45,306 bases of DNA from Promineifilum sp. (GTDB lineage: Bacteria > Chloroflexota > Anaerolineae > Promineifilales > Promineifilaceae): positions 1-45,306 of the forward strand of contig NZ_JAYRVJ010000009.1 in the NCBI RefSeq assembly GCF_041918635.1. Reading direction: 5' to 3'. The notes under the pieces were generated by a model. That model saw only the letters and a program-made list of their open reading frames with translations, made no database searches and was not told the DNA's origin. The first letter of the stretch is position 1. Each line of letters begins with the position of its first letter. Below, piece after piece: positions 600-45,306 of the stretch. Position numbers and translations under genes: made by a program.

Positions 600-1613
600 A
601 TGGACGTTACGACGCCTAAGCCAAGTCAAGAGGAGCCGTCAATCCTGAATGACCGTCTCGCCTCCCGCAACATCGGTCTTGACCTGGTGCGGGTCACTGA
701 GGCGGCCGCGCTGGCCGCGGGGCGGTGGATAGGGTCGGGCAACTACGCCGCCGCTCACGCCGCGGCCACCGAAGCTATGGCTAACATGCTGCTGACGCTG
801 GGCATCGACGGCTGCATCGCCATCGGCGAGGACCGGCTCATTGACGGGGTCGCGCCGCTGTGCGAGAGGACGGTGTTTGGGCCGGGCCGCGTGCCATGCG
901 ATCTGGCGGTGGATCCCATTGACGGTACGCGACTGCTGGTCGAGGGGAAGCCGGGGGCCATCTCGGTGGTGGCCGTGGCCCCGCGCCATAGCATCTGGTC
1001 GACCGGCCCGGCCGAATACCTCGACAAGATCGTCGTCGACCGCGACGCCGCGCCGCTGCTCGTGCCGGAATGCATGGACGCGCCGGCGGCCTGGACGTTG
1101 GCGCTCATCGCCCGCGCCAAGAAAAAGGCGGTGCGCGACCTCGTGGTGGTGGTGCTCCAGCGCGTGCGCCACTACGAGCTGATCGAGGAGATACGGGCGA
1201 CCGGAGCGCGCATTCTGCTGCGCGAGGAAGGGGACGCGGAGGGAGCGCTGGTGGCCGCCACGCCGGGCACGGGCGTGGACGTGCTGATGGGCGTCGGCGG
1301 GGCGTCCCAGGGGGCGCTGGCGGCTTGCGCCGTGCGGGCCTTGCGCGGCGGCATGCTGGCCCGGCTGGCCCCGCAGTCGGCCGAAGAGCAGGCGGCCGTC
1401 GCTCAGGCGGGGCTGGATACCAAGCGGGTCATGACCATTGACGAATTGGTGACGGGCGACGATATCTTCTTTGCCGCAACGGGCGTCACCGACTCCTCGC
1501 TGTTGCCGGGCATCACCTACCAGGGCGGGCGCGCTGAGACGCACTCGCTGCTAATCCGCGCCAAGACGAAGACAAGGCGGTTTATCCAGGCGGAGCATAC
1601 GTTGGAGGAGTAG
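600..1613 (+). CDS. glpX: Class II fructose-1,6-bisphosphatase (GlpX)-family protein with a divergent active site
   Basis: DLVRVTEAAALAA, DLAVDPIDGT, Y.DK, R.RH and FAATGVTD motifs are present, but several catalytic positions are substituted (see findings). Confidence 0.85.
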   Translation: MDVTTPKPSQEEPSILNDRLASRNIGLDLVRVTEAAALAAGRWIGSGNYAAAHAAATEAMANMLLTLGIDGCIAIGEDRLIDGVAPLCERTVFGPGRVPCDLAVDPIDGTRLLVEGKPGAISVVAVAPRHSIWSTGPAEYLDKIVVDRDAAPLLVPECMDAPAAWTLALIARAKKKAVRDLVVVVLQRVRHYELIEEIRATGARILLREEGDAEGALVAATPGTGVDVLMGVGGASQGALAACAVRALRGGMLARLAPQSAEEQAAVAQAGLDTKRVMTIDELVTGDDIFFAATGVTDSSLLPGITYQGGRAETHSLLIRAKTKTRRFIQAEHTLEE

Positions 1614-1690
1614 CGGGGGAGCAGGGGGGCGCGGGAGCAGGAGAGCCAAAGCGCTTTCACCCCCGCTCCCCTGCACCCCCGCGCTTTCAC
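1612..1690. repeat. Inverted octamer array (GGGGAGCA-like / CCCCTGCA-like), family G
   Basis: GCGGGGGAGCAGGGGGGCGCGGGAGCAGGAG ... CCCCGCTCCCCTGCACCCCCGC lies between convergent stops. A related array is at 45181-45212. Confidence 0.7.
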
Positions 1691-1692
1691 CC

Positions 1693-2130
1693 TTATACGT
1701 AGGCGGCCCTCGTCTCCCGATGAAACAGCCAGGCCAGCCCCAGAATGGGCTGGATGAGCGGGAAGTAGCCATAGTCGGCCCCAAAGCGGCCCCAGACCGT
1801 ACGGCCGATCGCGTCGGGGATGATAAAGCTGAGGGTGCCGATGAGCAGTACCATCGCCAGTTCGAAGACCAGCATGCTGACCGACAACCGCCAGGCCCAG
1901 CGCTTGCGCACGACGAAGCCAACGGTCGCCAGCAGATAGCACACCGCCGCCACGCCGCTGAGCAGCGGCGGCAGGTAGTTGGTTACGCCTTCCTTAAGGA
2001 ACAACTGATAGAGCGCCCGAACGCCGGTGGACAAAGCCAGCACCGGGTAAGAGATAGCCAGGATGACGCCCGCGGCCCGGATGAAACCGGACAGGGCGTT
2101 TTCGGTAACATTGCTTTCTTGCGTGGTCAT
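1693..2130 (-). CDS. Hypothetical membrane protein (about 4 TM helices)
   Basis: Hydrophobic segments. ATG at 2130 (MTTQES..) lies 6 nt downstream of TACGAT, so it is preferred over the ORF-track start at 2199. Confidence 0.7.
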   Translation of the reverse strand: MTTQESNVTENALSGFIRAAGVILAISYPVLALSTGVRALYQLFLKEGVTNYLPPLLSGVAAVCYLLATVGFVVRKRWAWRLSVSMLVFELAMVLLIGTLSFIIPDAIGRTVWGRFGADYGYFPLIQPILGLAWLFHRETRAAYV

Positions 2131-2231
2131 AAGGCGATCGTAGCGCAGCCGGCCAGGCTGCGCCACAACGGTATCTGAACAGTTGCTAAACCCCGGCAAG
2201 CTTCTCCCTGTTGAAATGTTACAATTCTGCC

Positions 2232-3785: not shown

Positions 3786-3791
3786 GAAGGG

Positions 3792-3821
3792 AATCCACAG
3801 ATTTCGCAGATTGCACAGATT
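3792..3821. repeat. Nonamer array (CACAGATTT-like), family E, single arm
   Basis: AATCCACAGATTTCGCAGATTGCACAGATT; related copies at 13711, 14712, 21956, 23207, 28720 and 31568. Confidence 0.75.
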
Positions 3822-3822
3822 G

Positions 3823-3898
3823 GTTGTTAGTCGTTGGTCGTTGGTTGCCAGTGGTTGGCGACCAACGACCAACCACTAACAACTAACAACTGACAACT
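3823..3898. repeat. Inverted heptamer array (GTCGTTG / ACCAACG / ACTAACA), family H
   Basis: GTTGTTA GTCGTTG GTCGTTG GTTGCCA GTGGTTG, then ACCAACG ACCAACC ACTAACA ACTAACA ACTGACA. Confidence 0.8.
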
Positions 3899-3911
3899 AC
3901 CGACTTCCCCC

Positions 3912-6030: not shown

Positions 6031-6100
6031 ATGCGCTCCGGCTGTTAGAACATCTGGCCTGATTCTAGCGGGCCGGGGCGCGGGCCGCAACTGACATGCT

Positions 6101-6173
6101 TAGACCTGGCAGGTGGGCAGCCACAAGGCACATCCCTGCCGAAGTACCACTGGCTGCCCACCTGTCAGGTCTA
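6101..6173. repeat. 23-bp inverted repeat element (AGACCTG.CAGGT core), family D
   Basis: TAGACCTGGCAGGTGGGCAGCCA (6101-6123) and TGGCTGCCCACCTGTCAGGTCTA (6151-6173), 1 mismatch. The core recurs at 41064-41078, with a variant at 30481-30515. Confidence 0.85.
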
Positions 6174-6250
6174 TCTGCGGCATGGCAAACCCGCGCTAAA
6201 CGCGCTACAATGCCGTCCTATTCAACATCTATTCGATTTGGAGGTGCTTT

Positions 6251-6598: not shown

Positions 6599-6619
6599 GG
6601 CCCACGCAGGCCCTACTGC
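6592..6619. terminator. GTAG..CTAC hairpin between convergent rsfS and ndk (REP-like, possible bidirectional terminator)
   Basis: GCAGTAGGGCC-CACGCA-GGCCCTACTGC; it contains the rsfS TAG. Confidence 0.55.
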
Positions 6620-6632
6620 GCGGTTGTTCCAC

Positions 6633-7082: not shown

Positions 7083-7136
7083 CTAGCTTGCTCCGTTGTA
7101 AGTAAATGAGTCGTAATCAATCGCCGGCCGCGGCGG

Positions 7137-10977: not shown

Positions 10978-13326
10978 ATGGATCAGATATTCAGATTTCT
11001 CCAGATGGGCTTGGAACAATTTGAGGTCATCGCCACATGGGCCATTCTGGCCGTCGCTTTTGTTGGTCTGCTCTACGCGCTCTTCTTGCGGCAGCAAATC
11101 CTCCGTGAAGACAAGGGGACGGAGAAGATGCAGGAAGTGTGGGAGGCCATTCGCCAGGGAGCGAATGCGTACCTGACTCGCCAGTTGCGCACGATTCTGC
11201 CCTTCATCGTCATCCTGACTATCGCCCTGTTTCTCAGCGTCTACATCGTCCCACCGACGGAGTTCTCGATGGAGGTTTTCGCCGGTTACAGTGAAGATAC
11301 CATCCGGCTCATCGTCGGCATCGGCCGGGCCGTGGCCTTCGTGTTGGGCGCGGGCTTCTCGCTGATGGTCGGCCAGTTGGGCATGCGCATGGCCGTTGAG
11401 GGCAACGTTCGCGTGGCCGCCGCGGCCCGCACCAGCTTCAAGGATTCTCTGCGCATCGCCTACCGCACCGGAACCATCACTGGCATGCTGACCGACGGCC
11501 TGGGGCTATTGGGCGGCACGCTCATCTTCATGGTCTTCGGCAAGGCCGCGCCCGACGCCCTGCTCGGCTTCGGCTTTGGCGGCACGCTGATCGCGCTCTT
11601 CATGCGCGTCGGCGGTGGCATCTACACCAAGGCCGCCGACGTGGGCGCCGACCTGGTGGGTAAGGTCGAGCAGGACATGCCGGAGGATGACCCGCGCAAC
11701 GCCGCCGTCATTGCCGACCTGGTGGGCGACAACGTCGGCGACTGCGCCGGTATGGCCGCCGACATCTTCGAGTCCTACGAGGTGACCATCGTCTCCAGCC
11801 TGATCCTCGGCGTCACCCTGACGCTCATCACCGGCCACAACGAGTGGATCCTCTTCCCGCTGCTGGTGCGCGGCATCGGCGTGCTGGCGTCCATCGTTGG
11901 CACCTACCTGGTGCGCGGCGAGTCGGACGACAGCGGCAACGCCATGCAGGCCATCTTCCGCGGCTTCCTGACCTCGGCGGCCATCTCGGTGGTGCTTTTC
12001 GGCGCGGTGGCGCTGTTCTACATGTCCGGGGTCCCCGGCGGCTGGTGGCGGCCGTTCCTCTCGACGGCGGCTGGCGTTGGCTTGGCCATCGTCATCGACC
12101 GGCTGACCGATTACTTCACCGGCACGCACTTCCGGCCGGTGAAGGAGATTCGCGACGCCACCTCCGGCGGCCCGGCGACTACGATCCTGTCCGGTCTCTC
12201 GTCCGGCTATGAGTCGGCCGTCTGGTCAGTCATCGTCATCGCCGCGACCATCGTCGTCGCCATCCTCATCTACAGCGGCGTTTCGGCCGACGCCTTCGTG
12301 TCGGAGCGCTTCTCGCCCGACTTCATCCAGTTCACCTTCGTGCTCTATGGCATCGCCCTGACCGGCATCGGCATGCTGACCCTGACGGGCAACAACGTCG
12401 CCATGGACTCCTTCGGCCCCATCAGCGACAACGCCAACGGCATTGGCGAGATGGCCGGTCTGGAGCCTAAGGCGCGCAAGATCATGGCCGACCTGGACGC
12501 CGTGGGCAACACGACGAAGGCCATCACCAAGGGCATCGCCATCGGCTCGGCGGTCATCGCCGCCGTATCACTGTTTGGCTCGTTCATCACTGACGTGTCG
12601 CTGGTAGACCCGGAAGCGCTGGCGAACGGCATTCGCGTGTCGGAGCCGCTCGTCTTTGTCGGCATGTTGCTGGGCGGGGCGCTGCCATGGATGTTCTCGT
12701 CGCTGGCCATCCGCGCCGTCAGCCGCGCCGCCGGCCAGATGGTCGAGGAAGTGCGCCGGCAGTTCCGCATCCCTGGCATCATCGAGGGGACGGTGACGCC
12801 GGACTATGCCCGCGCTGTGACCATCTCCACGGTGGCCGCCCAGCGCGACCTGATCAATCTGGCCGTGCTGGCCGTCTTCACCCCCATCGCCGTCGGCCTG
12901 CTCTTGCAGGTGGAGGCGTTGGGCGGCTTCCAGGCGGGCATCATCGTCTCCGGTATGCTCCTGGCCGTCTTCATGTCCAACACCGGCGGCGCGTGGGACA
13001 ACGGCAAGAAGCTCATTGAGGATGAGGAGCGCAACATTGAGGCCAACACCGGCAAAGGCTCGGAGCGTCACAAGGCGGCCGTCGTCGGGGACACGGTCGG
13101 CGACCCGCTGAAGGACACGGCCGGCCCGGCGCTGAACCCGATGATTAAGGTCGTCAACCTGGTCAGCCTTATCATCGCGCCCATCGTCGTCCGCTACAGC
13201 GACCGCAACATCGTGGTCATCCTCATCGTGCTGGCCCTCATCGGCGTGCTGGGCTGGGCCATCACGCGCTCCAAGCGCGCCGCCGAGCCTATCGCCGCGC
13301 CGGCGCGGACGCAGACCACGTCGTAG
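10978..13326 (+). CDS. hppA: Membrane-bound cation-translocating pyrophosphatase, K+-independent type
   Basis: GGGIYTKAADVGADLVGKVE, PEDDPRN, GDNVGD, DSFGPISDNANG, GNTTKA (Lys determinant), GGAWDN and GDTVGDP.KD motifs. Confidence 0.95.
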   Translation: MDQIFRFLQMGLEQFEVIATWAILAVAFVGLLYALFLRQQILREDKGTEKMQEVWEAIRQGANAYLTRQLRTILPFIVILTIALFLSVYIVPPTEFSMEVFAGYSEDTIRLIVGIGRAVAFVLGAGFSLMVGQLGMRMAVEGNVRVAAAARTSFKDSLRIAYRTGTITGMLTDGLGLLGGTLIFMVFGKAAPDALLGFGFGGTLIALFMRVGGGIYTKAADVGADLVGKVEQDMPEDDPRNAAVIADLVGDNVGDCAGMAADIFESYEVTIVSSLILGVTLTLITGHNEWILFPLLVRGIGVLASIVGTYLVRGESDDSGNAMQAIFRGFLTSAAISVVLFGAVALFYMSGVPGGWWRPFLSTAAGVGLAIVIDRLTDYFTGTHFRPVKEIRDATSGGPATTILSGLSSGYESAVWSVIVIAATIVVAILIYSGVSADAFVSERFSPDFIQFTFVLYGIALTGIGMLTLTGNNVAMDSFGPISDNANGIGEMAGLEPKARKIMADLDAVGNTTKAITKGIAIGSAVIAAVSLFGSFITDVSLVDPEALANGIRVSEPLVFVGMLLGGALPWMFSSLAIRAVSRAAGQMVEEVRRQFRIPGIIEGTVTPDYARAVTISTVAAQRDLINLAVLAVFTPIAVGLLLQVEALGGFQAGIIVSGMLLAVFMSNTGGAWDNGKKLIEDEERNIEANTGKGSERHKAAVVGDTVGDPLKDTAGPALNPMIKVVNLVSLIIAPIVVRYSDRNIVVILIVLALIGVLGWAITRSKRAAEPIAAPARTQTTS

Positions 13327-13397
13327 TCGGGGCGGGTTTGAAACCCGCCCTTACATGGTAGTGGTGTGGTAGGGGCGGGTTTCAAACCCGCCCCTAC
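13323..13397. repeat. Pair of GTAG-type REP-like palindromes (GGGCGGGTTTCAAACCCGCCC), family A
   Basis: Copies at 13323-13354 and 13369-13397; near-identical copies at 28572-28600 and 28619-28643. Confidence 0.85.
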
Positions 13398-13464
13398 AAC
13401 CGGCACGGTGGGTACCACGGCGGTGCGTTGGCGAGCCGCCGCGTTTTGGCGTACAATGACCCCT

Positions 13465-13692: not shown

Positions 13693-13710
13693 ATTAGCAA
13701 GAACAAAGCG

Positions 13711-13774
13711 TCCACAGATTTCACAGATTTCACAGATTTTCTCTTCAATCTGTGTAATCTGTGAAATCTGTGGA
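13711..13774. repeat. Complete inverted nonamer element, family E
   Basis: TCCACAGATTTCACAGATTTCACAGATTTT-spacer-AATCTGTGTAATCTGTGAAATCTGTGGA. Confidence 0.9.
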
Positions 13775-13796
13775 TGCTTCTTATGACGAGGCAAGT

Positions 13797-14702: not shown

Positions 14703-14711
14703 GAGAAGAAG

Positions 14712-14845
14712 AATCCGCAAATTACGCAGATCACGCAGATTCGCAATTGTGGAGTCTTAAGAAATGGCTACGGATCACGGCAGAAGAAGACGGATCATTG
14801 AATTCGCTCTTAATCCGTATTGTCCGTCCGAATCTGTAGCCATTT
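14712..14845. repeat. Family E arm (14712-14741) plus family F inverted element (14762-14845)
   Basis: AAATGGCTACGGAT..ACGGAT ... ATCCGT..ATCTGTAGCCATTT; a second family F copy is at 32971-33072. Confidence 0.8.
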
Positions 14846-14891
14846 ATTAGACACAAACTATTCGCTCACTGACGCAAGGAACATAAAAGGC

Positions 14892-20828: not shown

Positions 20829-20895
20829 GTAGTCAGGCAATTCATTGCCGTTCTTCACGCCTGTGGCGAAGAACGGCAATGAACTGCCTGACTAC
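20829..20895. repeat. MITE/REP-doublet-like element, family B
   Basis: GTAGTCAGGCAATTCATTGCCGTTCTT..AAGAACGGCAATGAACTGCCTGACTAC. Copies at 24158-24223 and 39938-40003; half copies at 25536-25559 and 39917-39932. Confidence 0.9.
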
Positions 20896-21955: not shown

Positions 21956-22022
21956 ATCCGCAGATTAGGCAGATTTTCGTCCTTGTAAAAACCCGGTTTC
22001 TTCTGAGAAACCGGGTTTCTAC
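21956..22022. repeat. Family E arm (21956-21977) plus family C palindrome (21985-22022)
   Basis: GTAAAAACCCGGTTTCTTCTGAGAAACCGGGTTTCTAC; a second family C copy is at 32913-32949. Confidence 0.85.
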
Positions 22023-23137: not shown

Positions 23138-23248
23138 AGACGGGTATTATAGCACGCTCGCGCCGTCGCGTACTCCGCTGAACGATGCTAGAATCACGCT
23201 CTTAGTAATCTGCGAAATCGGCGGATCATTCTCCCCCACGTGAGCCCT

Positions 23249-25999
23249 ATGTTGCTCCTGCCGTTCACCTCGACCGACGCCACGCTCCAGACCGCCGGCG
23301 GCAAGGGGGCCAATCTGGCCCGCCTGACGCACGCCGGGTTCCCCGTGCCGCCCGGCTTCATCGCCCCGACGGCCGCCTATCGCGCCTTCGTGGAAGCCAA
23401 TGAGTTAGGCGGCGTCATCGCCGCGTCCCTGACCGGCCTGGCCGCCGACGACGCGGCCCGGCTGGAAGCGGCATCGGCGGCCATTCGCGGGGCCTTCGCA
23501 CGGGGGCGCGTGCCGGAGGAGGTGGCCGCGGCGATTCGGGAGGCGTATAGAGGACTGGCCGGCGGGGACGCCGGCGATCCGAGTGTGGCTGTGCGCTCGT
23601 CGGCCACGCTGGAGGATTTGCCCGACCTGTCTTTCGCCGGGCAGCAGGACACGTTCCTCAACGTGGTGGGCGCGGAGGCGCTGCTGCGGGCGGTGGTGGA
23701 TTGCTGGTCGAGCCTGTGGACGGGGCGGGCCATCGGCTACCGGGCGCGCAACGGCCTGGATCACGAGGGGGCGGCGCTGGCGGTCATCGTGCAGGTCATG
23801 GTTCCCAGCGACGTGTCGGGTGTGCTGTTCACCGCCAACCCGCTGACAGGGTTGCTCAGCGAGTCGGTCATCGACGCCACGTTCGGGTTGGGCGAGGCGC
23901 TGGTGGCCGGGCAGGTAGAGCCGGATCACTTCGTGGTGGACGCGCGCTCCGGCGCGATCCGGTCGGTGGCGCTGGGGGCCAAGGCGGTCGCCACGCGCGG
24001 CCGGCCGGGCGGCGGGGTGGAGACGCGGGCCGAGGACGGCGCGGCGCGGCAGACGCTCGCGCCGGGCGAGATTCGGCGGCTGGTCGAGTTAGGGCAGCGA
24101 GTGCAGGCGGAGTATGGCGCGCCGCAGGATATAGAGTGGGCGCTGGCGCGGCGACATGTAGTCGGGCAATTCATTGCCGTTCCTGGCGAAGGGGAGAAGA
24201 ACGGCGATGAATCGCCTGACTACGAACTCTATCTGCTGCAATCGCGGGCCATCACGTCGCTTTTCCCCGTGCCGGAGGTGTCGTTCGACCCGCTGATCAT
24301 CTGGTTCTCGTTCGGCGCGGCGCAGGGGATGCTGGAGCCGATCACGCCGTTGGGGCGCGACAGCCTGCGCCAACTGCTGGCGGGGGCGGCCGGGCTGTTC
24401 GGGCGGCAGCCCGCGCCCGAGGAACTGCGCGTGTTCGCCGCGGCCGGAGAGCGCATCTGGGTGCGCATCAGCGACCTCATCCGCCACCCGGTCGGCCACC
24501 GCCTGTTCAAGGGTGTGGTCGACTACCTGGAGCCAAGTGTGGGGCAGATCGTCAGCGCCCTGGCCGATGACCCGCGGTTGGGGGCGGGACAGGGGCGGCT
24601 CAAGCTGAGCACGCTGTGGCAGCTGGGCCGCGTCTTTGTGCCGCTCATCGCGCGGATCATCCGCAACGCGGCGCGGCCCGCGGCGGCGAGAGCGCGGCTG
24701 GAGGCCGACATCGAGGCGTACCTGGCCGAGGCCCGTATCCCGGCCGGGGCCGACCGCTTCGAGCGGCTGGGCCACATCGCCGCCTTCCTGCGCGACCGGC
24801 TGGCGCATGGTTTCTCGTTCCTGCTGCCTCGCTTTGTGCCCGTGCTCGGCCCCAGTATGGGGTCGCTGGCCTTACTCAACAAGCTGGCCGGAGACCAACC
24901 GGCGCTAGCGCTGGAAGTGACCCGCGCCCTGCCCCAGAACGTGACGACGGAGATGGACTTGGCGCTGTGGCGGGCGGCGGCGGCCATCCGGGCCGACGCG
25001 GAAGCGGCGGCCTGTTTCGCCGCATTGGACGCGCCCGCGCTGGCCGAGCGCTACTTGCGCGGCGCGCTGCCGCCGGCGGCGCAGACGGCCGTGTCTGGCT
25101 TCCTGGAGCGGTATGGGGCGCGCGGTGTGGGCGAGATCGACATGGGCCGGGCGCGCTGGCGCGAGGAGCCGGCGCCGGTGATGCGCACCCTGCAGAGCTA
25201 CCTCCAGATTGACCCGGCAGCCGCGCCCGACGTGGTGTTTGCGCGCGGCGAGCGGGCGGCGGCCGAGGCGGTGGAGGCGTTGGCCGCCGTCGCCCGCCGC
25301 CAGCGCGGCGGGTGGCTCAAGGAGAAGGTGGCGCGGGCCGCCGCCACGCGCGTCCGGCTGATGATGGGCGCGCGCGAAAGCCCCAAGTTCTTCGCCGTAC
25401 GCGTCATGGGGATCGTTCGTGCGGCGCTGCTGGACGTGGGCGAGGCGTTCGCCGCGGCGGGGACGATTGAGCAGGCCGACGACCTGTTCTTCCTGACCAT
25501 CACTGAATTAGAGAGCCTCTCCCGCAATGAGGTTGGTAGTCAGGCGATTTATCGCCGTCTGATCGCCGAGCGTCGCGCCCTCTACGAGCGCGAGGCGCGC
25601 CGCCGCCAGGTTCCGCGCGTGCTGGTCAGCGACGGCCGGGCCTTCTACGAGGGGCTGGGCGCGCTGAGCGACGCCGGAGATGTCATCATCGGCAGCCCCG
25701 TCTCGCCGGGCGTGGCCGAGGGGGTCGTTCACGTCGTGCTGGATCCGTTCGGGACGCAACTCGCGCCGGGCGAGATTCTGGTTTGTCCCGGCACCGACCC
25801 GGGCTGGACGCCGCTCTTTCTAACTGCTGGCGGGCTCATCACCGAGGTGGGCGGGATGATGACCCACGGCTCGGTGGTGGCGCGGGAGTACGGCATCCCA
25901 GCCGTGGTGGGCGTGCATCAGGCGACGAGCCGGCTGAAGGACGGGCAGCGGATTCGAGTGGATGGCACGCAGGGGCGGATCGTGGTGCTGGACGATTGA
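23249..25999 (+). CDS. PEP-utilising enzyme with rifampin phosphotransferase-like architecture (ATP-grasp, substrate-binding and His-swivel domains)
   Basis: GGKGANL, AVRSSA..EDL..SFAGQ, GLGEALV.G, DIEWA..LQSR.IT, YG.RG.GEID..RW.E.P and TDPGWTPLF..GGMMTHGSVVAREYGIP motifs. Confidence 0.85.
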   Translation: MLLLPFTSTDATLQTAGGKGANLARLTHAGFPVPPGFIAPTAAYRAFVEANELGGVIAASLTGLAADDAARLEAASAAIRGAFARGRVPEEVAAAIREAYRGLAGGDAGDPSVAVRSSATLEDLPDLSFAGQQDTFLNVVGAEALLRAVVDCWSSLWTGRAIGYRARNGLDHEGAALAVIVQVMVPSDVSGVLFTANPLTGLLSESVIDATFGLGEALVAGQVEPDHFVVDARSGAIRSVALGAKAVATRGRPGGGVETRAEDGAARQTLAPGEIRRLVELGQRVQAEYGAPQDIEWALARRHVVGQFIAVPGEGEKNGDESPDYELYLLQSRAITSLFPVPEVSFDPLIIWFSFGAAQGMLEPITPLGRDSLRQLLAGAAGLFGRQPAPEELRVFAAAGERIWVRISDLIRHPVGHRLFKGVVDYLEPSVGQIVSALADDPRLGAGQGRLKLSTLWQLGRVFVPLIARIIRNAARPAAARARLEADIEAYLAEARIPAGADRFERLGHIAAFLRDRLAHGFSFLLPRFVPVLGPSMGSLALLNKLAGDQPALALEVTRALPQNVTTEMDLALWRAAAAIRADAEAAACFAALDAPALAERYLRGALPPAAQTAVSGFLERYGARGVGEIDMGRARWREEPAPVMRTLQSYLQIDPAAAPDVVFARGERAAAEAVEALAAVARRQRGGWLKEKVARAAATRVRLMMGARESPKFFAVRVMGIVRAALLDVGEAFAAAGTIEQADDLFFLTITELESLSRNEVGSQAIYRRLIAERRALYEREARRRQVPRVLVSDGRAFYEGLGALSDAGDVIIGSPVSPGVAEGVVHVVLDPFGTQLAPGEILVCPGTDPGWTPLFLTAGGLITEVGGMMTHGSVVAREYGIPAVVGVHQATSRLKDGQRIRVDGTQGRIVVLDD
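24158..24223. repeat. Family B element inserted in-frame (22 codons) in the PEP-utilising enzyme
   Basis: GTAGTCGGGCAATTCATTGCCGTT..AACGGCGATGAATCGCCTGACTAC is 66 nt and translates as VVGQFIAVPGEGEKNGDESPDY. Confidence 0.9.
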
Positions 26000-27030: not shown

Positions 27031-28622
27031 GCGGACTACTGACGACAGACGACGGACGACGGGCAGCGCTCTTTCTGGCTATCGCCGTGATGGTCGGGTT
27101 GGCCGTCGTCCGACTGCCGCTGCCAGTCGCCGCAGGGGCGGTGGCGCTGGCGGCGGCCGTGCTGCTGGCGCTGATCAACCCGCTCTTCGGGCTGGCGCTG
27201 GCGCTGCTGGTCGGGCCGCTGGGGGCGCTGGAGAACGTCGTTCTGGGCAGCGCCCTGCTGGATAGCGGGCAGGCGGCGCTGCTGCTGGCGCTGGCGTCGT
27301 GGATCGGCGGCGGGCTGGCGCGGCGGCGGCTGTGCGTCCCGGCCACGCCGTTCAATGGGCCGTGGCTGCTCTTCGTCGCCGTCGCCGCCCTGGGCCTGTT
27401 GGACGCTTACTCCATCCCGCTGGGTCTGGTCGAACTGCTGAAATGGCTGGAGATGGGCTTGATCGTCTGGCTGATGCTCGACCTGGCCGACGACCCCACG
27501 CGCCGGCCGGTGGGTCGCCCGGCCGTCTTGCGCCTGGTGCTGGCGGCGCTGCTGCTGGCCGGGCTGATCCAGGCGCTCATCGGCGTCTGGCAATTCGGGT
27601 TGCGCGGCGATGGGCCGGAGCACTTCCTCGTCCTGGGCCGCTTCTATCGCGCCTATGGGACGTTCGAGCAGCCCAACCCGTTCGGCGGGTATATGAATTT
27701 GACGGCGTTCCTGGGGGCGGGGGTGGCATTGGGTTATGCCGCGTACCTGGCTGGCGTTAAGAGGAAGAGGAACACAGAGTTACACAGCTCTGTGTTCCTC
27801 TTCTCTGATCACGCCATCATCACACCAACCCAGTCTCGGAGCGCTCATATCATTTGGCTGATTTTTGCCCTATTGTGCGCGGGGGCGGGAACACTGGGGC
27901 TGGTCTTTTCGTGGAGTCGCGGGGCGTGGCTGGGCTTTCTGGCCGGCGGGGCGGTGTTGCTGCTGTTCAGCGCGCGGCGGGTGGCGGTGGGCGCGGCCGT
28001 GGCCGGCGTGGCGGCGGTCGTGCTGGGCGGGGGGCTGTGGCTGGGCGTGTCGGCCGGGTTCGGGCCGGCGCTGTCGGTGGCCGACCGGCTGAGCGGCTTC
28101 GGCGACGAGTTCCGCCTGGGGGACGTGCGCGGCGTGGACATCAACGACGCCAACTACGCCGTGCTGGAGCGGCTGGCCCACTGGCAGGCGGCGGCCGATA
28201 TGGCCCGCGACGACCTGTGGAGCGGCGTCGGCTTCGGCAACTACGCCGCCGCCTATCCCGACTACGCGCTCATCAATTGGCCCGACGCGCTGGGCCACGC
28301 CCACAACTACTACCTCAACCTGTTGGCCGAAGTGGGCGCGCCCGGTTTGCTGGCCTACGCGCTCTTCTGGCTGTTCGTCGTCGGCCAGACGGTGTGGCTG
28401 GCGCGGCGGCTGGCGTGGCCGGAGCGTGGGGTGGCCGTAGGGTTGCTGGCGGCCTGGGCGGCGTTGGCAGTCCACCACCTCGTGGATAAACTATACGTGA
28501 ATAATATCTACATCCACCTGGGCGGGATGCTCGGTCTGCTACAATTGCTTGTCTGGCGTGGGTTTTATGATGTAGGGCGGGTTTCCAAACCCGCCCCTAC
28601 GGACGACATTTGCCCGGTGTAG
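27027..28622 (+). CDS. O-antigen ligase/polymerase-family membrane protein
   Basis: Multiple TM helices; [30 protein letters not shown] and HAHN.YL..LAE.G motifs. The start overlaps the upstream stop. Confidence 0.85.
27764..27803. repeat. Perfect 16-bp inverted repeat inside the ligase gene (family I, related to family E)
   Basis: GAAGAGGAACACAGAG-TTACACAG-CTCTGTGTTCCTCTTC, within a low-GC island in a GC-rich gene. Confidence 0.85.
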
Positions 28623-28643
28623 GGGCGGGTTTCAAACCCGCCC
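28572..28643. repeat. Pair of family A REP-like palindromes
   Basis: GTAGGGCGGGTTTCCAAACCCGCCCCTAC and GTAGGGGCGGGTTTCAAACCCGCCC; they encode the ligase C-terminus and stop. Confidence 0.85.
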
Positions 28644-28719: not shown

Positions 28720-28754
28720 AAATCTGTGCAATCTGTGAAATCTGTGGATGCTTC
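28720..28754. repeat. Family E right arm
   Basis: ATCTGTGAAATCTGTGGATGCTTC (28731-28754) is identical to 13757-13780. Confidence 0.8.
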
Positions 28755-29324: not shown

Positions 29325-30517
29325 AGCGCGGCGCGACCATCGGCTTCGACGTGACCGCGGCCCTGACGCAGGGGGGCGGCATCGGCCGCTACACCCGCGA
29401 ACTGATCCACGCCCTGGTCAGTGCCGCGCCGCAGTATCGGTATACGCTCTTCTCCGCCCGACCGCCGGCCGCGCCGCCCGTACCCGACTCGCTGCCGGCC
29501 GCGGCCCACGTGGCGCACCGGCCGGCCCCGGTGGACGAGCGCTGGCTCTACCGGCTGTGGTATCGCGCCAACCTGCCACTGCCTGTCCAGTTTTTCACCG
29601 GGCCGATTGACCTGTTCCACTCGCCCGACTTCGTGCTGCCGCCGGTGCGCGGTGACATCCCCACGCTGCTGACTGTCCATGATCTGTCCTTCATCCACTA
29701 CCCGGAGACGTTTCCGGCGCGGCTGGTGGTCTATCTGAACCGCGTCGTGCCCCGGTCGGTGGCGCGGGCTGGTCACATCCTGGCCGACTCCCAGGCCACG
29801 CGGCGTGACCTGGAGGCGGTGTGGGGGGTGTCGCCGGGCAAGGTGACGGTGCTCTACAGCGGCGTCAACCCGCGCTTCCGGCCGGTGCGCGACCTGGCGG
29901 CGCTGGCCGCCGTGCGCGCCCGCTACGGCCTGGGCAACCGGCCCTACGTGCTGACCGTCGGCACGGTGCAGCCGCGCAAGAATTACGAGATGCTGGTGCG
30001 CGCCTTCGCGCCGCTGGCCGAGCGCCACCCGCACACGCTGGTCATCGCCGGCGGGCGGGGTTGGCTGGTGGAGGGGCTGCTGGCCGAGATCGCGCGGCTG
30101 GGGCTGGGCGACCGGGTGCAGCTGGCCGGCTTCGTGGACGATGCCGACCTGCCCGCACTGTACTCGGCGGCCGACCTGTTCGTCTTCCCCAGCCTCTATG
30201 AGGGGTTCGGCCTGCCGCTGCTGGAGGCAATGGCCTGCGGCGCGCCGGTGGTCACGTCCGACGCCTCCAGCCTGCCGGAGGTGGTGCGGACGGACGGCGC
30301 GGCCGCGGCGCTGGCCCTGTCGCCCCACGACGAGGCGGGCTGGACGGCAGCGATGGATAGACTGCTGTCGGACGAGGTGGCGCGGCGCGCGTTGGCCGCG
30401 GCCGGCCCGGTGCAGGCGGCGCGGTTCAGCTGGGAGCGGGCGGCGGGGGAGTTGGCAGACTTGTATGCCACACTTCTGGCAGACCTCAGAGGTTTGCCGC
30501 AAACCTCTGAGGTCTAG
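29321..30517 (+). CDS. GT4 glycosyltransferase
   Basis: GGIGRY, TVHDL, VGTVQPRKN and FPSLYEGFGLPLLEAMACG motifs. Confidence 0.92.
   Translation: MKRGATIGFDVTAALTQGGGIGRYTRELIHALVSAAPQYRYTLFSARPPAAPPVPDSLPAAAHVAHRPAPVDERWLYRLWYRANLPLPVQFFTGPIDLFHSPDFVLPPVRGDIPTLLTVHDLSFIHYPETFPARLVVYLNRVVPRSVARAGHILADSQATRRDLEAVWGVSPGKVTVLYSGVNPRFRPVRDLAALAAVRARYGLGNRPYVLTVGTVQPRKNYEMLVRAFAPLAERHPHTLVIAGGRGWLVEGLLAEIARLGLGDRVQLAGFVDDADLPALYSAADLFVFPSLYEGFGLPLLEAMACGAPVVTSDASSLPEVVRTDGAAAALALSPHDEAGWTAAMDRLLSDEVARRALAAAGPVQAARFSWERAAGELADLYATLLADLRGLPQTSEV
30481..30515. repeat. Family D variant palindrome read by both convergent genes
   Basis: AGACCTCAGAGGTTT-GCCGC-AAACCTCTGAGGTCT. Confidence 0.8.
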
Positions 30518-31547: not shown

Positions 31548-31592
31548 ATCATCTCCGAAGAAAGAAGAATCCGCAGAAGAACAATCCGCAGA

Positions 31593-32903
31593 TTACGCAG
31601 ATTGGGGCAGCCATTGGTGAGTGTCCTCCGCGATCAAGGTTTCTAGAACGTGGGCGACGTCGGCCGGGCGGAGGTCGTGGCGACCCTGCTCATTGAGCAG
31701 GCTGACCAGGCGGTGGCAGAGGGTCTGGACGGCGAGGGGGTGGCCGGCGGTGGCGTCCCAGATGCGCTCCACGGCCTCATCCTCCACGGTCAGCGCGCCG
31801 GCCAGCGGCCCGCGCACCAGCACCTCGGTCTCCGCCCGGTCGAGCGGGCCGAGCTCGCGCCGGGCGCACAGGTCGAGAAGGGGCCGCCAGAAGGGGTCGA
31901 GCGCGCCGGGGCCGCCGCAGAGCAGGAAGGCCGTCCGCTCGCGGTGCTGCATCTGGGCGCGCAGGAAGGGCAGCAGTTCCGGCTCCAGCCGGCCGCCCTC
32001 GATGCCCGCCCGCAGCTGCTCCAGTTCGTCCACGGCGATGAGCAGCAGCCCCCCGGCCGGCAGCGCCGCCTCGGCCCGGTCGAGCGCCCGCTCCAGCACG
32101 GCATAAGGGGATTCATCGGGCAGGGCGTCACCGGTGTGGCCGTTGGCGTGCGCTTGCGGGGCTACGTCGCCGGCCACATGGCACAGCCACTCGCCCGTGT
32201 GGCAGCCAGCCAGGCGTTGCAGGTCAATATAGACGGGCGTGAGCGGCCGGATGGGATGCCGACGCAGAGGATCGCCGCGCCGCCCGGCGGCGACCTGATA
32301 AAGCGTCGAGGTCTTGCCCACGCGCCGTTGACCGTGGAGCAGCAGGGCGTTGGGGCGGCTGGGGGCGTGGAGATTCTCGGCCAGCCAGGCGAACACCTCC
32401 TCCCGCCCGACGTACAGCGTCTCGGCCGGGCCGGCGAGCGGGCGGCCGACGACGTAGGGGTTGGGGAGCAGGGCCGAGTCGGGCCGCCTGTTCCCAGCCG
32501 GGGCCGGCAGATGGCGACGCAGGGCGCAGGCCAGGTGGGTCAGTTCGCGTGCGCCCTTGGTGAACTGCCAGGCGGCCCCCTCACGCAGCAGGTAGCGCGC
32601 CCGGTCGCCGGAGCGGGCTGAGAAAGCGACGAGCGGCGCGTCCGGCCGCAGCCGCCGCGCCTCGCGCGCGAAGGCGAGCAGGTCGGGCAGGGGGGCGTCG
32701 TCGGCGTCGAGGAGTAGCAGGTCGATGTCCGGCTCGCGCCGCAGCCGCTCCAGCGCGGCGGGCAGGGCCGGCTCGATAGTGAAGGTGAAGTCGGCTGTCT
32801 GGGCCAGGATGACGGCCGGGAAAGGGGCCGCCGCAGTGCGCGCAAAAGCCGCGCCTGCACAAAGGGTCTTGAGGGGGCATTTGGCGGGGGCGTCGATGAT
32901 CAC
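31593..32903 (-). CDS. Receiver-like domain fused to a STAND-like ATPase
   Basis: N-terminal DLLLLD..PLVAFSAR..GAAWQFTK resembles a receiver domain. It is followed by PNPYVVGRP..YVGRE, GQRRVGKTS, LIAVDELE and TAGHPLAVQ. The start is uncertain. Confidence 0.72.
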   Translation of the reverse strand: MIIDAPAKCPLKTLCAGAAFARTAAAPFPAVILAQTADFTFTIEPALPAALERLRREPDIDLLLLDADDAPLPDLLAFAREARRLRPDAPLVAFSARSGDRARYLLREGAAWQFTKGARELTHLACALRRHLPAPAGNRRPDSALLPNPYVVGRPLAGPAETLYVGREEVFAWLAENLHAPSRPNALLLHGQRRVGKTSTLYQVAAGRRGDPLRRHPIRPLTPVYIDLQRLAGCHTGEWLCHVAGDVAPQAHANGHTGDALPDESPYAVLERALDRAEAALPAGGLLLIAVDELEQLRAGIEGGRLEPELLPFLRAQMQHRERTAFLLCGGPGALDPFWRPLLDLCARRELGPLDRAETEVLVRGPLAGALTVEDEAVERIWDATAGHPLAVQTLCHRLVSLLNEQGRHDLRPADVAHVLETLIAEDTHQWLPQSA

Positions 32904-32912
32904 GTCGTTGTC

Positions 32913-33072
32913 GTAGAAACCCGGTTTCTTCTGAGAAACCGGATTCTACTATTTTAGTTTGAAGGGGGAGAAATGGCTACGAATTTGGACGGAAGAGACG
33001 GATGAAGAACGGATTCAACATTGTTTTCAATCCGTTCTTCATCCGTCCCTTCCGTCCAAATCCGTAGCCATT
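32913..33072. repeat. Family C palindrome (32913-32949) plus family F inverted element (32971-33072)
   Basis: GTAGAAACCCGGTTTCTTCTGAGAAACCGGATTCTAC; AAATGGCTACGAATTTGGACGGAAG..GAAGAACGGATT / AATCCGTTCTTC..CTTCCGTCCAAATCCGTAGCCATT. Confidence 0.88.
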
Positions 33073-33087
33073 CTTTCGCGCCACAAG

Positions 33088-33555: not shown

Positions 33556-33572
33556 CTCATACCCCCTGAGAG

Positions 33573-33632
33573 AAATTATGAATTATGAACTTGTGACCTG
33601 AGCTTTGCTTAATAATTCATAATTCTTAATTC
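33573..33632. repeat. Inverted AT-rich heptamer array (AATTATG / CATAATT), family H type
   Basis: AAATTATGAATTATGAAC ... AATAATTCATAATTCTTAATTC; the right arm encodes the ELRIMNY end of the DnaE-like gene. Confidence 0.8.
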
Positions 33633-37994: not shown

Positions 37995-38020
37995 TGGGTC
38001 AATTGGTGTATAATCCCGCC

Positions 38021-38524: not shown

Positions 38525-38534
38525 GGGGTAGCGC

Positions 38535-39941
38535 GTGCCGACCACTATTGCCCCTCCCGCCAGCGCCTTGCGCGACTTGCCCAGTGTGGATCGTTTGCTC
38601 CGCGCTCCCGGCGCGGACGAACTGGCCGCGGCCTACGGCCGGCCACTGGCGACCGAGGCCCTGCGCGCCGCGCTGGATGAGGCCCGTGCCGCCCTGCGTG
38701 ACGGCCGCGAGGATGAGGCCCTGCCCGATTGGGAACTGGTTGTCGGCGCGCGGGCCTGGCTGGAGAGCCTGCTGGCCCCCACACTCCGGCCGGTCATCAA
38801 CGCCACGGGCATCATCGTCCACACCAACCTGGGCCGCGCCCCACTCAGCGACGACGCCCTGGCGGCGGTGGCCGCCGTCTCGTCCGGCTACTCGACGCTG
38901 GAATACGACCTGGAGGAGGGGCGCCGCGGCTCGCGCGCCGTCCACGCCGAGCGCCTGCTGGCGCGGCTGGTGGGCGCGGAGGCGGCGCTCGTCGTCAACA
39001 ACAACGCGGCGGCCGTCCTGTTGCTGCTGACTGCCCTCTGCCGCGGGCGCGAAGTCATCATTAGCCGCGGCCAACTGGTGGAGATCGGCGGCGGCTTCCG
39101 CATCCCGGAAGTGCTGGCCCAATCGGGGGCGCGTCTGGTCGAGGTGGGCACGACCAACCGCACGTACCGGCGCGACTACGCCGAGGCCATCACCGAGGAC
39201 ACCGCGGCCATCCTGGTCGTCCACCACTCCAACTACCAGATTACCGGCTTTACCAGCCAGCCGGAACTGGCCGAATTGGCCGAACTGGCCCATGAACGCG
39301 ACCTGTGGCTGCTGTTCGATCAGGGCAGCGGCGCGCTGCTCGACGTAGCCCCCTACGGCCTGGAGCCGGAGCCAACCGTGCCCGACGGCCTGCGCGCCGG
39401 CTGTGACGTGGTCGCCTTCAGCGGCGATAAGCTGCTGGGCGGCCCACAGGCGGGCATCCTGTGTGGCCGGGCCGACCTGGTAGCGCGCCTGAAGCGACAC
39501 CCACTGGCCCGCGCCGTCCGCGCTGACAAAATGGCCCTGGCGGCCCTAACGGCGACGCTAGGCCACTATCTGACTGGACAGCCGGAGCGCGTGCCCGTCT
39601 GGGGCATGATCGCCCGACCGGCGGCCGAGATCGCCGCCGAGGCCGAGGCGTGGGCGGCCCATCTAACGCGGGCCGGCCTGCGCGCCGAGACGTTGCCGGG
39701 CGAATCGCGCGTCGGCGGCGGCAGTTTGCCCGGCGCGAGCCTGCCGACGCGGCTGGTGGCTGTGACGCCGGACGGGCTGAGCGCCGAGGCATTCGCCGCG
39801 CGGCTGCGGGCCGGCCGCCGGCCGGTCATTGCCCGCATCCAGGACGATCGCCTGCTGCTCGATCCGCGCACTGTGCTGCCGGGTCAAGCGGAGGCCCTGC
39901 TGCGGGCCGTCGAGCGGACGGCGATGAATCGCGGCTCGTAG
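38535..39941 (+). CDS. selA: L-seryl-tRNA(Sec) selenium transferase
   Basis: LPSVD, VINATG...HTNLGRAPL, VNNNAAAV, SRGQLVEIGGGFRIP, EVGTTN and FSGDKLLGGPQAG motifs. Confidence 0.95.
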   Translation: MPTTIAPPASALRDLPSVDRLLRAPGADELAAAYGRPLATEALRAALDEARAALRDGREDEALPDWELVVGARAWLESLLAPTLRPVINATGIIVHTNLGRAPLSDDALAAVAAVSSGYSTLEYDLEEGRRGSRAVHAERLLARLVGAEAALVVNNNAAAVLLLLTALCRGREVIISRGQLVEIGGGFRIPEVLAQSGARLVEVGTTNRTYRRDYAEAITEDTAAILVVHHSNYQITGFTSQPELAELAELAHERDLWLLFDQGSGALLDVAPYGLEPEPTVPDGLRAGCDVVAFSGDKLLGGPQAGILCGRADLVARLKRHPLARAVRADKMALAALTATLGHYLTGQPERVPVWGMIARPAAEIAAEAEAWAAHLTRAGLRAETLPGESRVGGGSLPGASLPTRLVAVTPDGLSAEAFAARLRAGRRPVIARIQDDRLLLDPRTVLPGQAEALLRAVERTAMNRGS

Positions 39942-40003
39942 TCAGACAATTCATTGCCGTTCTTCCGGCTCGCCAGAAGAACGGCAATGTATTGCCTGAC
40001 TAC
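39917..40003. repeat. Family B element (39938-40003) preceded by a half copy
   Basis: GTAGTCAGACAATTCATTGCCGTTCTT..AAGAACGGCAATGTATTGCCTGACTAC; its GTAG contains the selA stop. Confidence 0.88.
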
Positions 40004-40032
40004 GAACGAAGCGGCTTTGTGTTAGGATCATT

Positions 40033-41055: not shown

Positions 41056-41063
41056 ACGTTCCC

Positions 41064-41078
41064 AGACCTGTCAGGTCT
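41064..41078. repeat. Family D core palindrome
   Basis: AGACCTGTCAGGTCT. Confidence 0.6.
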
Positions 41079-41095
41079 AATTGGCACTGTATCTG

Positions 41096-43485: not shown

Positions 43486-43524
43486 AGGGTGGAGCAAGAG
43501 GACGAGTGAGCGGGAGGATGGGAG

Positions 43525-44229
43525 ATGGCAATACGGGATAGTAACGCCGCACAGGCCCTGCAGGTGGTGCCTTTCTTCACCAATTTAGGGGACGAGCACG
43601 CCAATGAACTCGCCACACGGCTGGTTCCCCGCCGCTTCGGCCCCGGTCAGGTGATATTTCACCTGGGCGACCCGGGCGGCCTGCTGTATCTGATCAGCCG
43701 CGGCAAGGTGAAGATCAGCCACACCACGCCCGAGGGGCAGGAAGTCGTGCTGGCGATCCTGGGCACGGGCGACTTCTTCGGCGAGCTGGCCCTGCTCGAT
43801 GACTCCCCGCGCTCGGCCACGGCCGTCGCCCTGGAGCCGACTGAGACCTGGACGCTGCACCGCGAGGAGTTCATGCACTACCTGAGTGAGAACCCCGGTT
43901 TCGCCTTGCACGTGCTGAAGATGCTGGCCCGCGTCATTCGTCGGCTCAACACCCAACTGGCCGACATCTTCTTCCTCGATCTACCCGGGCGTCTGGCGCG
44001 GCTGCTGCTCAACCTGTCCGAACAGTATGGCCGCAAGACCCAGGATGGCGTCCTCATTGACCTGGCACTCACTCAGACCGACCTGGCCGAGATGACCGGC
44101 GCGACGCGGGTCAGCATCAACAAGGCCCTCGGCCGCTTCCGGCGCTCCGGCTGGATTCGCGTGAGCGGCCGGCGGGTGACGGTCGTCGATCAGGCGGCGC
44201 TGGAGGGCCTGATCGAGATCTCCGGGTAA
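43525..44229 (+). CDS. Crp/Fnr-family transcriptional regulator
   Basis: GDFFGELALLD..PRSATA cyclic-nucleotide pocket; HTH LTQTDLAEMTGATRVSINKAL. Confidence 0.93.
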   Translation: MAIRDSNAAQALQVVPFFTNLGDEHANELATRLVPRRFGPGQVIFHLGDPGGLLYLISRGKVKISHTTPEGQEVVLAILGTGDFFGELALLDDSPRSATAVALEPTETWTLHREEFMHYLSENPGFALHVLKMLARVIRRLNTQLADIFFLDLPGRLARLLLNLSEQYGRKTQDGVLIDLALTQTDLAEMTGATRVSINKALGRFRRSGWIRVSGRRVTVVDQAALEGLIEISG

Positions 44230-44395
44230 TTTCACTCCCCTGATTAGAAAGAGAGAAAAAGTACGCCGCAACCGCGCCTGTCGTGTATAAACATGAGATG
44301 GCGCGCTGATGGCACCTGGCCGGTATGGGCGGTGGAGCGGGCGTGGCAGCGAAAACCAAACCGATCCTTTCGGACTAGCGATTGATCAGACGACG

Positions 44396-45306
44396 ATGGG
44401 CGTGACCGACATCGAACACGACAACCTGGACGCGGCGGCGCGAGCAGCGGCGCGCGCCGAGGCGCTGGTAGTCATCCTGCTCCTGGCGGTGCTCGCCCTG
44501 GGGGCCTATTTCCGCCTGGTCGGCCTCGATTGGGACGCTGGCAGCCACCTCCACCCCGACGAGCGCTTCTTGACCATTGTAGCCGGCAAGATCAGCGGCG
44601 TGGAGAACCCCCTCGACTACCTGCGCACCTCCCGTTCGACGCTCAACCCGTATAACTTTGGCGAATCTTTCTACGTCTATGGCAACCTGCCCATGACGGT
44701 GGTGCGCTACGCCGCCGAGTGGATGGCCGGCGTCTGCGACTTCGCCGCCGACGTGGCCGGCGCGCCGCTCGCCTGGTGCCAGCGCGTCTACACTGGCTAC
44801 GACGGCATCCAGCTGGTCGGCCGCGCTCTGTCGGCGCTGGTCGATCTCGTCTCCATTCTGTTCACCTTCCTGATCGGCCGGCGGCTCTATAGCGCCTGGG
44901 CCGGCCTGTTCGCCGCGCTGCTTTTGGCTGTGGCCGTCATGCCCATCCAGCAGTCCCACTTCTTCACGATGGACAACTGGGCGACGGTGTTCACCACGTT
45001 GGCGCTCTACGCCGCCGTGCGCGCCGCCTCGCTGGGCGACGCCGAGCCGCGCTGGCGGCTGCGCTGGTGGGCGCTGTTCGGTCTGGCCTTGGGCCTGGCC
45101 GCCGCCTCGCGCATCAATATGGCGCCGTTGGCGTTGGTCATTAATGTGAGTGCGGTGATCTGGGTGGCGCGCCGGGGCGCCGGGGTGCAGGGGAGCGGGG
45201 GAGCGGGGGAGAGCGTTGCTCGTCGCTCGCCGCTCGTCGTTCAGCCGCGTGACCTGGAGCGGGCGCTCATCGGCATCGCCCTGGCCGCGATCGTGTCCAT
45301 CCTGAC
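44396..45306 (+). CDS. 3'-truncated GT-C/PMT-like membrane glycosyltransferase
   Basis: Frame open to the window end: LGAYFRLVGLDWDAGSHLHPDERFLT..YGNLP..IQQSHFFTMD; multiple TM helices. It is absent from the ORF track because it has no stop in the window. Confidence 0.75.
   Translation, partial: MGVTDIEHDNLDAAARAAARAEALVVILLLAVLALGAYFRLVGLDWDAGSHLHPDERFLTIVAGKISGVENPLDYLRTSRSTLNPYNFGESFYVYGNLPMTVVRYAAEWMAGVCDFAADVAGAPLAWCQRVYTGYDGIQLVGRALSALVDLVSILFTFLIGRRLYSAWAGLFAALLLAVAVMPIQQSHFFTMDNWATVFTTLALYAAVRAASLGDAEPRWRLRWWALFGLALGLAAASRINMAPLALVINVSAVIWVARRGAGVQGSGGAGESVARRSPLVVQPRDLERALIGIALAAIVSIL
45181..45243. repeat. Octamer (family G) and heptamer (family H type) arrays inside the glycosyltransferase CDS
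   Basis: GGGGTGCAGGGGAGCGGGGGAGCGGGGGAG followed by TGCTCGT CGCTCGC CGCTCGT CGTTC; the frame is preserved. Confidence 0.7.

Follow-up and report, generated by a model that had tools for sequence, protein, structure and literature searches.

The DNA examined here is contig NZ_JAYRVJ010000009.1 of a Promineifilum sp. assembly (GCF_041918635.1), taken at its full length of 45,306 nucleotides (the window), in which gene junctions are populated by short repeated elements, either hairpins with two inverted arms of tandem 7-, 8- or 9-mers or simple palindromes. The tandem-arm families pair with particular small proteins: 9-mer arms enclose genes of the GxxExxY family, while 7-mer and 8-mer arms enclose genes for a four-helix-bundle protein. 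Most filled GxxExxY cassettes of the genus occupy fixed home junctions at which a series of decayed alleles can be read, and the elements turn over between species, nest on the loop side of one another and lack target-site duplications above chance. The repeats are likely gene-less copies of such small cassettes. We consider it probable that each family of gene-less hairpins is copied by its own small protein, encoded between the same arms, in a hairpin-cutting cycle that resembles homing. Overall, the best reading is of a RAYT/REPIN-like organisation run by other proteins, for which we infer the copying chemistry.

The assembly (code G000, with the window as contig C9) comprises 4.92 Mb in 827 contigs, with 66% GC and 94.7% completeness. 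Genomes of relatives have codes such as G001 or G021, and the window junctions were compared in up to 21 congeners. The window contig occurs in DNA runs from sludge and wastewater metagenomes. Gene calling relied on a self-trained hexamer model (4,498 genes in G000), which makes the start codons approximate. Repeat families were defined by automatic k-mer clustering within G000; therefore, copies that have diverged and families that G000 lacks escape detection, and some of the junctions scored as empty in relatives hold other repeats. The repeats are far more frequent than chance predicts, with 3,061 13-mers of at least 8 occurrences and at least 40-fold over an order-6 Markov expectation, in 4,476 segments. 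Clustering gave 25 families with 2,815 elements, which occupy 148 kb or 3% of the genome (996 9-mer-armed, 295 8-mer-armed and 504 7-mer-armed elements, and 1,020 palindromes). About half of all gene junctions are occupied (1,842 of 3,671). Most elements lie at junctions (2,333), with 294 deep inside called genes and 188 near contig ends. The well-supported elements deep in genes number 232, including 78 of family G, which is poor in stop codons, and several of the 37 such elements that were checked are in-frame insertions lacking in relatives.

Arm types and the genes they enclose

The window itself holds no filled cassette; the filled forms lie outside it. Across G000, there are three GxxExxY cassettes (with E, J and F arms, the F-armed one being frameshifted), three four-helix-bundle genes with 7-mer arms, and two RAYT-like genes, one with its own palindromes on both sides. 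Among relatives, we examined the best-scoring loci (30 of 157 GxxExxY, 30 of 233 four-helix and 30 of 179 RAYT) plus genus sets. Excluding 4 truncated or partial loci from the GxxExxY set and 5 truncated or weak ones from the four-helix set gave 54 and 41 loci, respectively. Both flanks match a G000 family at 22 of the 54 GxxExxY loci, all with 9-mer families, and at 12 of the 41 four-helix loci, all with 7/8-mer families; no arm class crosses over between the two sets. The best flank period is 9-11 in 39/54 GxxExxY loci and 7-8 in 40/41 four-helix loci. GxxExxY goes with families E, F, I, J and K and the four-helix bundle with G and H, and the genes associated with tandem-arm families E-K are TIGR04256 and TIGR02436, not an HUH/Y1 transposase. 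Four-helix genes with the 8-mer arms of family G around them occur in G002, G014, G001 and two other genera. An earlier note on this DNA had linked, for other genomes, 9-mer and 7-mer inverted arrays with small GxxExxY nuclease and four-helix-bundle genes. Relatives bear this out, with 9-mer arms at GxxExxY genes and 7-mer as well as 8-mer arms at four-helix genes, and the families are genome-wide, differ between species and flank a consistent cargo. DUF559, also named there as possible enclosed cargo, has no match in this 94.7% complete assembly. In several genera, two GxxExxY domains stand in tandem within one frame (260-307 amino acids).

The GxxExxY cargo (PF13366) is a predicted PD-(D/E)XK nuclease. 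Its predicted model is a compact PD-(D/E)XK domain (predicted local distance difference test score, pLDDT, 93), with Cas4 SSO0001 (Foldseek E=3e-4) and restriction-like nucleases as the nearest solved folds (VIA Z 7.5-7.9), and the catalytic-type residues D, ExK and QxxxY are invariant in 34/34 aligned proteins. A search of PDB sequences with the GxxExxY profile gave no real hit. Publications linking GxxExxY or four-helix proteins to tandem arms were not found in a literature search that excluded supplements and most subscription papers; GxxExxY occurred there in three papers, of which the two listed name it once and deal with other topics, and the consulted passages of PMC8700078 draw no link to repeats.

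The palindromes belong to a different set of partners. The earlier note had placed GTAG-ended palindromes in the repetitive extragenic palindromic (REP) class mobilised by RAYT HUH transposases. Family C stands on both sides of RAYT genes at L167, L170 and L168 (G013 and G001). Among 40 RAYT loci examined, A-like (L172) and B-like (L169, L328, L337) palindromes stand on one side only and family D beside none; no partner gene of any kind was found for D. Three palindrome families outside the note's list also stand on both sides of RAYT genes: p37 at L164 and L166, pA35 at G000:C224, and p4 at 3/30 loci. A tetranucleotide foot 5' of the stem is present in A and B, has three of four bases fixed in C and is not evident in D. 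The palindrome families are ordinary or likely REP classes. None of 30 RAYT loci has a tandem-arm family on both sides. Separately, IS200-like Y1 genes carry long double palindromes on both sides at L081, L082, L084, L086, L089 and L091, and an IS200-like gene considered as a partner for family E (G000:C452) was rejected, having an upstream E copy only.

Home junctions, probable allele exchange and copy number

Within the genus, 23/30 GxxExxY entries lie at six home junctions, each common to 3-5 species; every home has a distinct arm type and, in most cases, a single protein clade. Four-helix sites are also shared between species, and some homes are shared across genera. At the E, F and J homes the site is fixed, and filled, decayed and empty alleles are found. 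At the E home, between the amidase and MazG genes, 4 genomes have the filled cassette, 6 have truncated forms or arm remnants and 9 have none, with 4 genomes unread. The F-home junction, between the HPPD and homogentisate dioxygenase genes, exists in 13 genomes: 3 with the filled cassette, 2 with an internal deletion and 8 without a cassette. In G020 the last cargo codons survive between the arms, and two other genera use this site as well. Of 12 genomes with the J-home junction (NUDIX to phosphoenolpyruvate (PEP) carboxylase), 4 have the filled cassette and 8 lack it. In three of the four filled genomes (G000:C677 L197, G013 L199 and G021 L198), the GxxExxY frame at the J home runs on without a break from the upstream NUDIX gene across the left arm, despite differing arm lengths and 59-76% cargo identity.

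The sister species G013 and G021 share 94.6% host protein identity, and the flanks of their cassettes are 87-94% identical, whereas their cargo DNA is 85% identical at the K home, 63% at the E home and 58% at the J home, a difference that points to allele swapping at home junctions. An approximately unbiased (AU) test on protein rejected the G013/G021 pairing at the E home (p=0.013, with the protein tree already known before the test). At the E home, arm variants group with the cargo rather than with the host, and cargo GC is 0.46-0.53 vs 0.66 for the genome. Three genomes of different genera have cargo proteins that are 96-99% identical and the same upstream gene, which is no proof of recent transfer because DNA identity is <88%.

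These observations bear upon pure domestication of the kind described for RAYTs, which would have a single ancestral insertion descend vertically, with frequent loss and arm copying, and would explain the low identities by uneven rates. The same junction and one protein clade per arm type indeed match the description of RAYTs in 10.1101/2021.07.10.451892. Furthermore, AU tests for J, and for E at the DNA level, do not reject host pairing, and G003, G004 and G015 have an identical cargo protein. Nevertheless, we think domestication unlikely: one species pair has the same protein family at 85% identity at one home and 58-63% at two others, the E-home arm variant tracks the cargo, cargo GC has not shifted towards that of the host, and the many decayed alleles suggest weak host benefit.

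The genome-wide copy number of a family tracks its home cassette, as a pattern rather than a test. Counted as first-look candidates per genome, E-type copies number 20-226 in 9/10 genomes with a trace at the E home and 0-13 in 9/9 genomes without one. Similarly, the 4 genomes whose J home is filled have 144-300 J-type candidates, against at most 7 in 16/19 others.

Placement, stacking and turnover of the elements

Elements sit close to gene ends. At co-directional junctions in G000 the first element begins a median of 3-7 nt from the upstream stop codon, and 810/999 single elements are closer to the upstream stop than to the next start. Of 264 single elements at convergent junctions, 92% are no more than 10 nt away from a stop codon; at divergent junctions, only 7% of 194 elements are within 10 nt of a start. 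This placement would suit a scenario in which the arms are RNA stems (terminators, RNase III sites or stop suppliers) spread by RAYTs or host recombination, with GxxExxY and four-helix genes riding as passengers in the loop, as in rRNA intervening sequences; loops do accept other elements and unrelated small genes. We regard it as rather improbable, since passengers would not be expected to have an arm type that tracks the GxxExxY clade or a copy number that tracks the home cassette, and since the RAYT loci lack tandem-arm families on both sides and the catalytic-type residues are invariant.

The proximity to upstream stops would also agree with an RNA route, whereby transcribed hairpins are reverse-transcribed and reinserted near stops with an Avd-like four-helix helper, and one four-helix protein weakly matches the Avd model of diversity-generating retroelements (E=3.5e-4). 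This explanation appears highly improbable: no RVT_1 reverse transcriptase match was obtained in G000 or in 4/5 congeners tested, divergent junctions without a nearby stop are occupied at a similar rate to the other junction types (0.51 vs 0.47 and 0.66), and lone E arms have no orientation bias relative to transcription (128 vs 111). Junction preference varies by family, as J, F and H19 favor convergent junctions (J 0.159 vs 0.02 divergent) and D, K and B favor divergent ones.

Target-site duplications were not found above chance, with 2-nt flank matches in 8/78 E and 6/120 J elements and longer matches rare; this comparison used stem ends as element ends, so an offset duplication could escape it. 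An element is present in G000 at 31/88 junctions where the gap in the relative is ≤5 nt, as exemplified by 31563-31603. At 27 convergent junctions with an element called only in G000, the other spacer has a median of 5 nt vs a 63-nt gap in the relative. Arm identity within copies is 0.69-0.84, which, with crude boundaries, is not clearly above between-copy values.

Within the window, every element of the earlier list was recovered at its position; the 7-mer runs at 27040 and 45217 are weak and were missed by the automatic scan. The elements are as follows, with the strand given where one was assigned.

1612..1690: family G, full hairpin with 8-mer arms; fills a convergent junction and begins in the upstream stop codon
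3789..3821 (+): family E, left arm without a right arm; directly after a stop codon
3823..3899: family H, hairpin of 7-mers; loop side of E arm 3789..3821
6101..6174: long palindrome of family D; divergent junction, search for a partner gene negative
13323..13398: family A, pair of REP-type palindromes, the first of which runs over the stop codon upstream
13706..13782: family E, complete 9-mer hairpin, empty
14707..14741 (+): family E, left arm only
14757..14848: hairpin of family F; loop side of E arm 14707..14741
20829..20895: family B palindrome; 3' of the rpoC terminator
21956..21977 (+): family E, left arm only
21985..22022: family C palindrome; overlaps a stop codon, family flanking RAYT genes in congeners
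23205..23226 (-): family E, right arm without a left arm, degenerate
24158..24224: palindrome of family B; in-frame within the PPDK_N/PEP-utiliser gene
25536..25557 (+): family B half copy; in frame in the PPDK_N/PEP-utiliser gene, absent from the earlier list
27040..27062 (+): weak 7-mer-like run; start of the O-antigen-ligase gene, missed by the automatic scan
27764..27803: short hairpin of family I; in-frame within the O-antigen-ligase gene
28572..28643: family A, two palindromes; 3' end of the O-antigen-ligase gene
28720..28754 (-): family E, right arm only; family A on its loop side
30481..30515: family D palindrome; overlaps the ends of two genes that converge
31563..31603 (+): family E arm; supplies a stop codon
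32913..32949: family C palindrome
32969..33075: family F, full hairpin with 47-nt arms
33573..33632: family H, 7-mer hairpin; overlaps a gene end
39918..40005: family B, one half copy and one full palindrome; gene end
41064..41078: family D, single arm
45181..45240 (+): family G single arm, then weak 7-mer-like run; coding sequence at the contig end

The elements at 3792, 14712, 21956, 23207, 28720 and 31568 (E), 41064 (D) and 45181 (G) are single arms, not full hairpins. Full elements pair closely, as in F at 32972-33072 (47-nt arms, 94% complementary) and E at 13706-13779 (33-nt arms, 94% complementary). The E halves at 21956 and 23207 were considered as the ends of a filled cassette and rejected, as the gene they enclose (22022-23137) is a host gene present in congeners.

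Different families share some junctions, which the earlier note had read as a sign of shared insertion hotspots. Some stacking in the window is expected by chance because 16/34 of its junctions are occupied, and across G000 stacking is in fact depleted: multi-family junctions number 368 vs 454±12.5 expected, below the minimum of 411 in 200 independent-placement shuffles. The deficit persists with stricter calls, long gaps and co-directional junctions (five shuffle variants). Certain pairs are enriched despite the overall deficit, such as E+J (73 vs 24.5) and G+p4 (25 vs 2.4), and these are largely nested; 84/368 multi-family junctions are fully nested, 40 of them with J inside E. Where a single arm has a neighbor, the neighbor is on its loop side in 216/241 cases, a stronger bias than that of control lone arms, which have more room on the loop side in 292/392 (p=2e-6). 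All four E stacks of the window obey this rule. Thus, given both the depletion and the loop-side nesting, stacks look like succession through the loop rather than accumulation at hotspots.

In congeners, the window junctions are mostly without an element, and an element-rich group has other families at the same places. The junction of the G element at 1612..1690 has other families or none in 3 congeners, that of F at 14757..14848 carries other families in G013, G001 and G014, and that of B at 20829..20895 holds other palindrome families in G013, G021 and G014. The E element at 13706..13782 has E counterparts in G013 and G014, D in G005 and none called in 18/21 congeners, and the E arm at 28720..28754 has no element called in 19/19. 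The genes around the E arm at 31563..31603 overlap each other in 13/13 congeners. Over ~1.2 Mb of three relatives, occupancy correlates with that of G000 (odds ratios 2.7, 12 and 1.8, the last not significant), and the family differs at 37/53, 11/20 and 28/34 of their jointly occupied junctions.

Several other features of the window were noted. The G001 junction matching 1613-1693 (L102) contains a 619-nt array of a palindrome family outside the G000 catalogue, and a small extra palindrome at 2140-2166, p46-like by eye, is absent from the earlier list. The prfB gene (14881-16014) has its usual short upstream frame and frameshift site, is kept in congeners and is ordinary. The PPDK_N and PEP-utiliser gene (23240-25999) is not at the syntenic place among the congener matches listed. 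Rfam had no match within the window.

Known systems and the proposed cycle

Free-standing homing endonuclease genes have a fixed site, patchy presence, decay and apparent re-invasion, and they normally leave no hundreds of gene-less arm copies. The cassettes share the fixed site, patchy presence and decay but differ in having hundreds of gene-less arm copies. They are also unlike DDE-derived miniature inverted-repeat transposable elements (MITEs), as there is no target-site duplication above chance.

The RAYT/REPIN system (PMC3733652, PMC6006769, PMC8266576, 10.1101/2021.07.10.451892) is close in organisation: C, p37, pA35 and p4 flank RAYT genes here, and in both cases each repeat family has a single-copy gene that relatives keep at one extragenic position (here 23/30 entries at six junctions). 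It differs in that the gene of E, F, I, J and K is of the predicted PD-(D/E)XK type and that of G and H is four-helix rather than an HUH transposase, the tandem 7-9-mer arms have no tetranucleotide foot, and home alleles look swapped here, in contrast to the reported agreement of RAYT trees with the host. The Ssn nucleases and their NTS/SRM repeats (PMC11893778) also combine a small single-domain nuclease gene with its own hairpin repeats in hundreds of copies, and they set a precedent for hairpin-specific cutting of single-stranded DNA. However, they have a GIY-YIG fold and no tandem arms, whereas the cargo here is PF13366 with a predicted PD-(D/E)XK fold. A small Ssn-type GIY-YIG protein was not found in G000, where the two GIY-YIG matches are in 300- and 641-amino-acid frames. 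The tandem-arm families therefore fall outside both RAYT/REPIN and Ssn/SRM, as the associated protein differs.

Similar four-helix genes (S23p/PF05635) lie in a long heptamer-repeat stem at a conserved site in 23S rRNA intervening sequences (PMC4990558), although the present cassettes lie between protein genes (one beside a tRNA-like sequence) and have hundreds of empty copies. The intergenic heptamer repeats of Beggiatoaceae, cyanobacteria and Bacteroidetes (PMC4679880) resemble the elements in their 7-mer runs by start codons, stops in all frames and lineage-specific positions, and differ in being direct repeats rather than paired arms. That report suggests that a repeat-binding protein could be the mobile element and, in the portion consulted, names no protein. 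What is new here is the home junctions, the swap signal, the copy-number link and the stacking depletion, while the REP palindromes are the known part.

In the cycle that we propose, RAYT would copy several palindromes, the GxxExxY protein the 9-mer arms and the four-helix protein the 7/8-mer arms. The GxxExxY nuclease would recognise its own arms as a single-stranded hairpin or cruciform and cut them, after which host repair would copy the arms to new sites without target duplication. Selection might then keep mainly those copies at gene ends, where a stop codon or a terminator-like stem is provided by the arm. Half arms and family turnover would result from newer elements that probably insert into the loop of an older element and push out one of its arms, and the filled cassette likely persists through replacement at its home junction by alleles of other lineages. 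Copying of the four-helix families is the weakest step because the four-helix-bundle protein is not known to have catalytic activity.

A number of observations weigh against this cycle. Neither activity nor movement has been observed, and the joints listed for contigs of 6 runs, which drop rare variants, included no convincing one that removes an element at its own site; the arm-to-arm joints among them had short sides and are explicable by other empty copies. The same contigs demonstrated no within-species strain variation of elements, and RNA runs containing the sequence looked DNA-like, with no expression evident from contigs. Every fold match of the GxxExxY model has Z <8. Identical full copies amount to 1 pair among 820 compared, 7/30 genus GxxExxY entries are at unshared sites, and the swap tests are mixed (AU p=0.14 for E at the DNA level and p=0.44 for J protein). 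Most families, including A, B and D, have no cognate gene in this assembly. In addition, single G or E arm pairs enclose HicB-like, ribbon-helix-helix (RHH) and Uma2 nuclease genes (L343:379-739; L344:361-757; L345:290-1100), so enclosure alone is no proof of cognate function, and element loops may capture unrelated small genes. The abundance link is limited by kin that are not independent and has exceptions in G012, which has a decayed E-home remnant yet only 12 E-type candidates, and in G007, G014 and G002, which have 81, 46 and 20 J-type copies, respectively, and no filled J home seen.

With more doubt than conviction, we further suggest that GxxExxY proteins may be a third enzyme class for REPIN-like populations, in which homing-type elements, each subfamily with one operon junction and one 9-mer hairpin, cut the loop, re-invade their home across species and seed hundreds of empty copies that compete for junctions with the four-helix and RAYT families. 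If true, each protein-arm pair would be a new programmable hairpin nuclease specificity. Because the substrates and home loci are defined, the question reduces to a cleavage or binding assay with built-in non-cognate controls. The elements likely reshape operon expression, since they make up 3% of the genome, differ from species to species and have rebuilt stops and ribosome-binding regions, including those of genes that overlap (31/88 such junctions). Short tandem and palindromic repeats fill the intergenic space of many bacteria, and RAYT and Ssn are the systems with a known copying protein. Here, two orphan protein families can each be matched to defined repeat substrates and home loci, and a cassette that is likely swapped at its fixed home points to a little-described way for bacterial repeats to spread.

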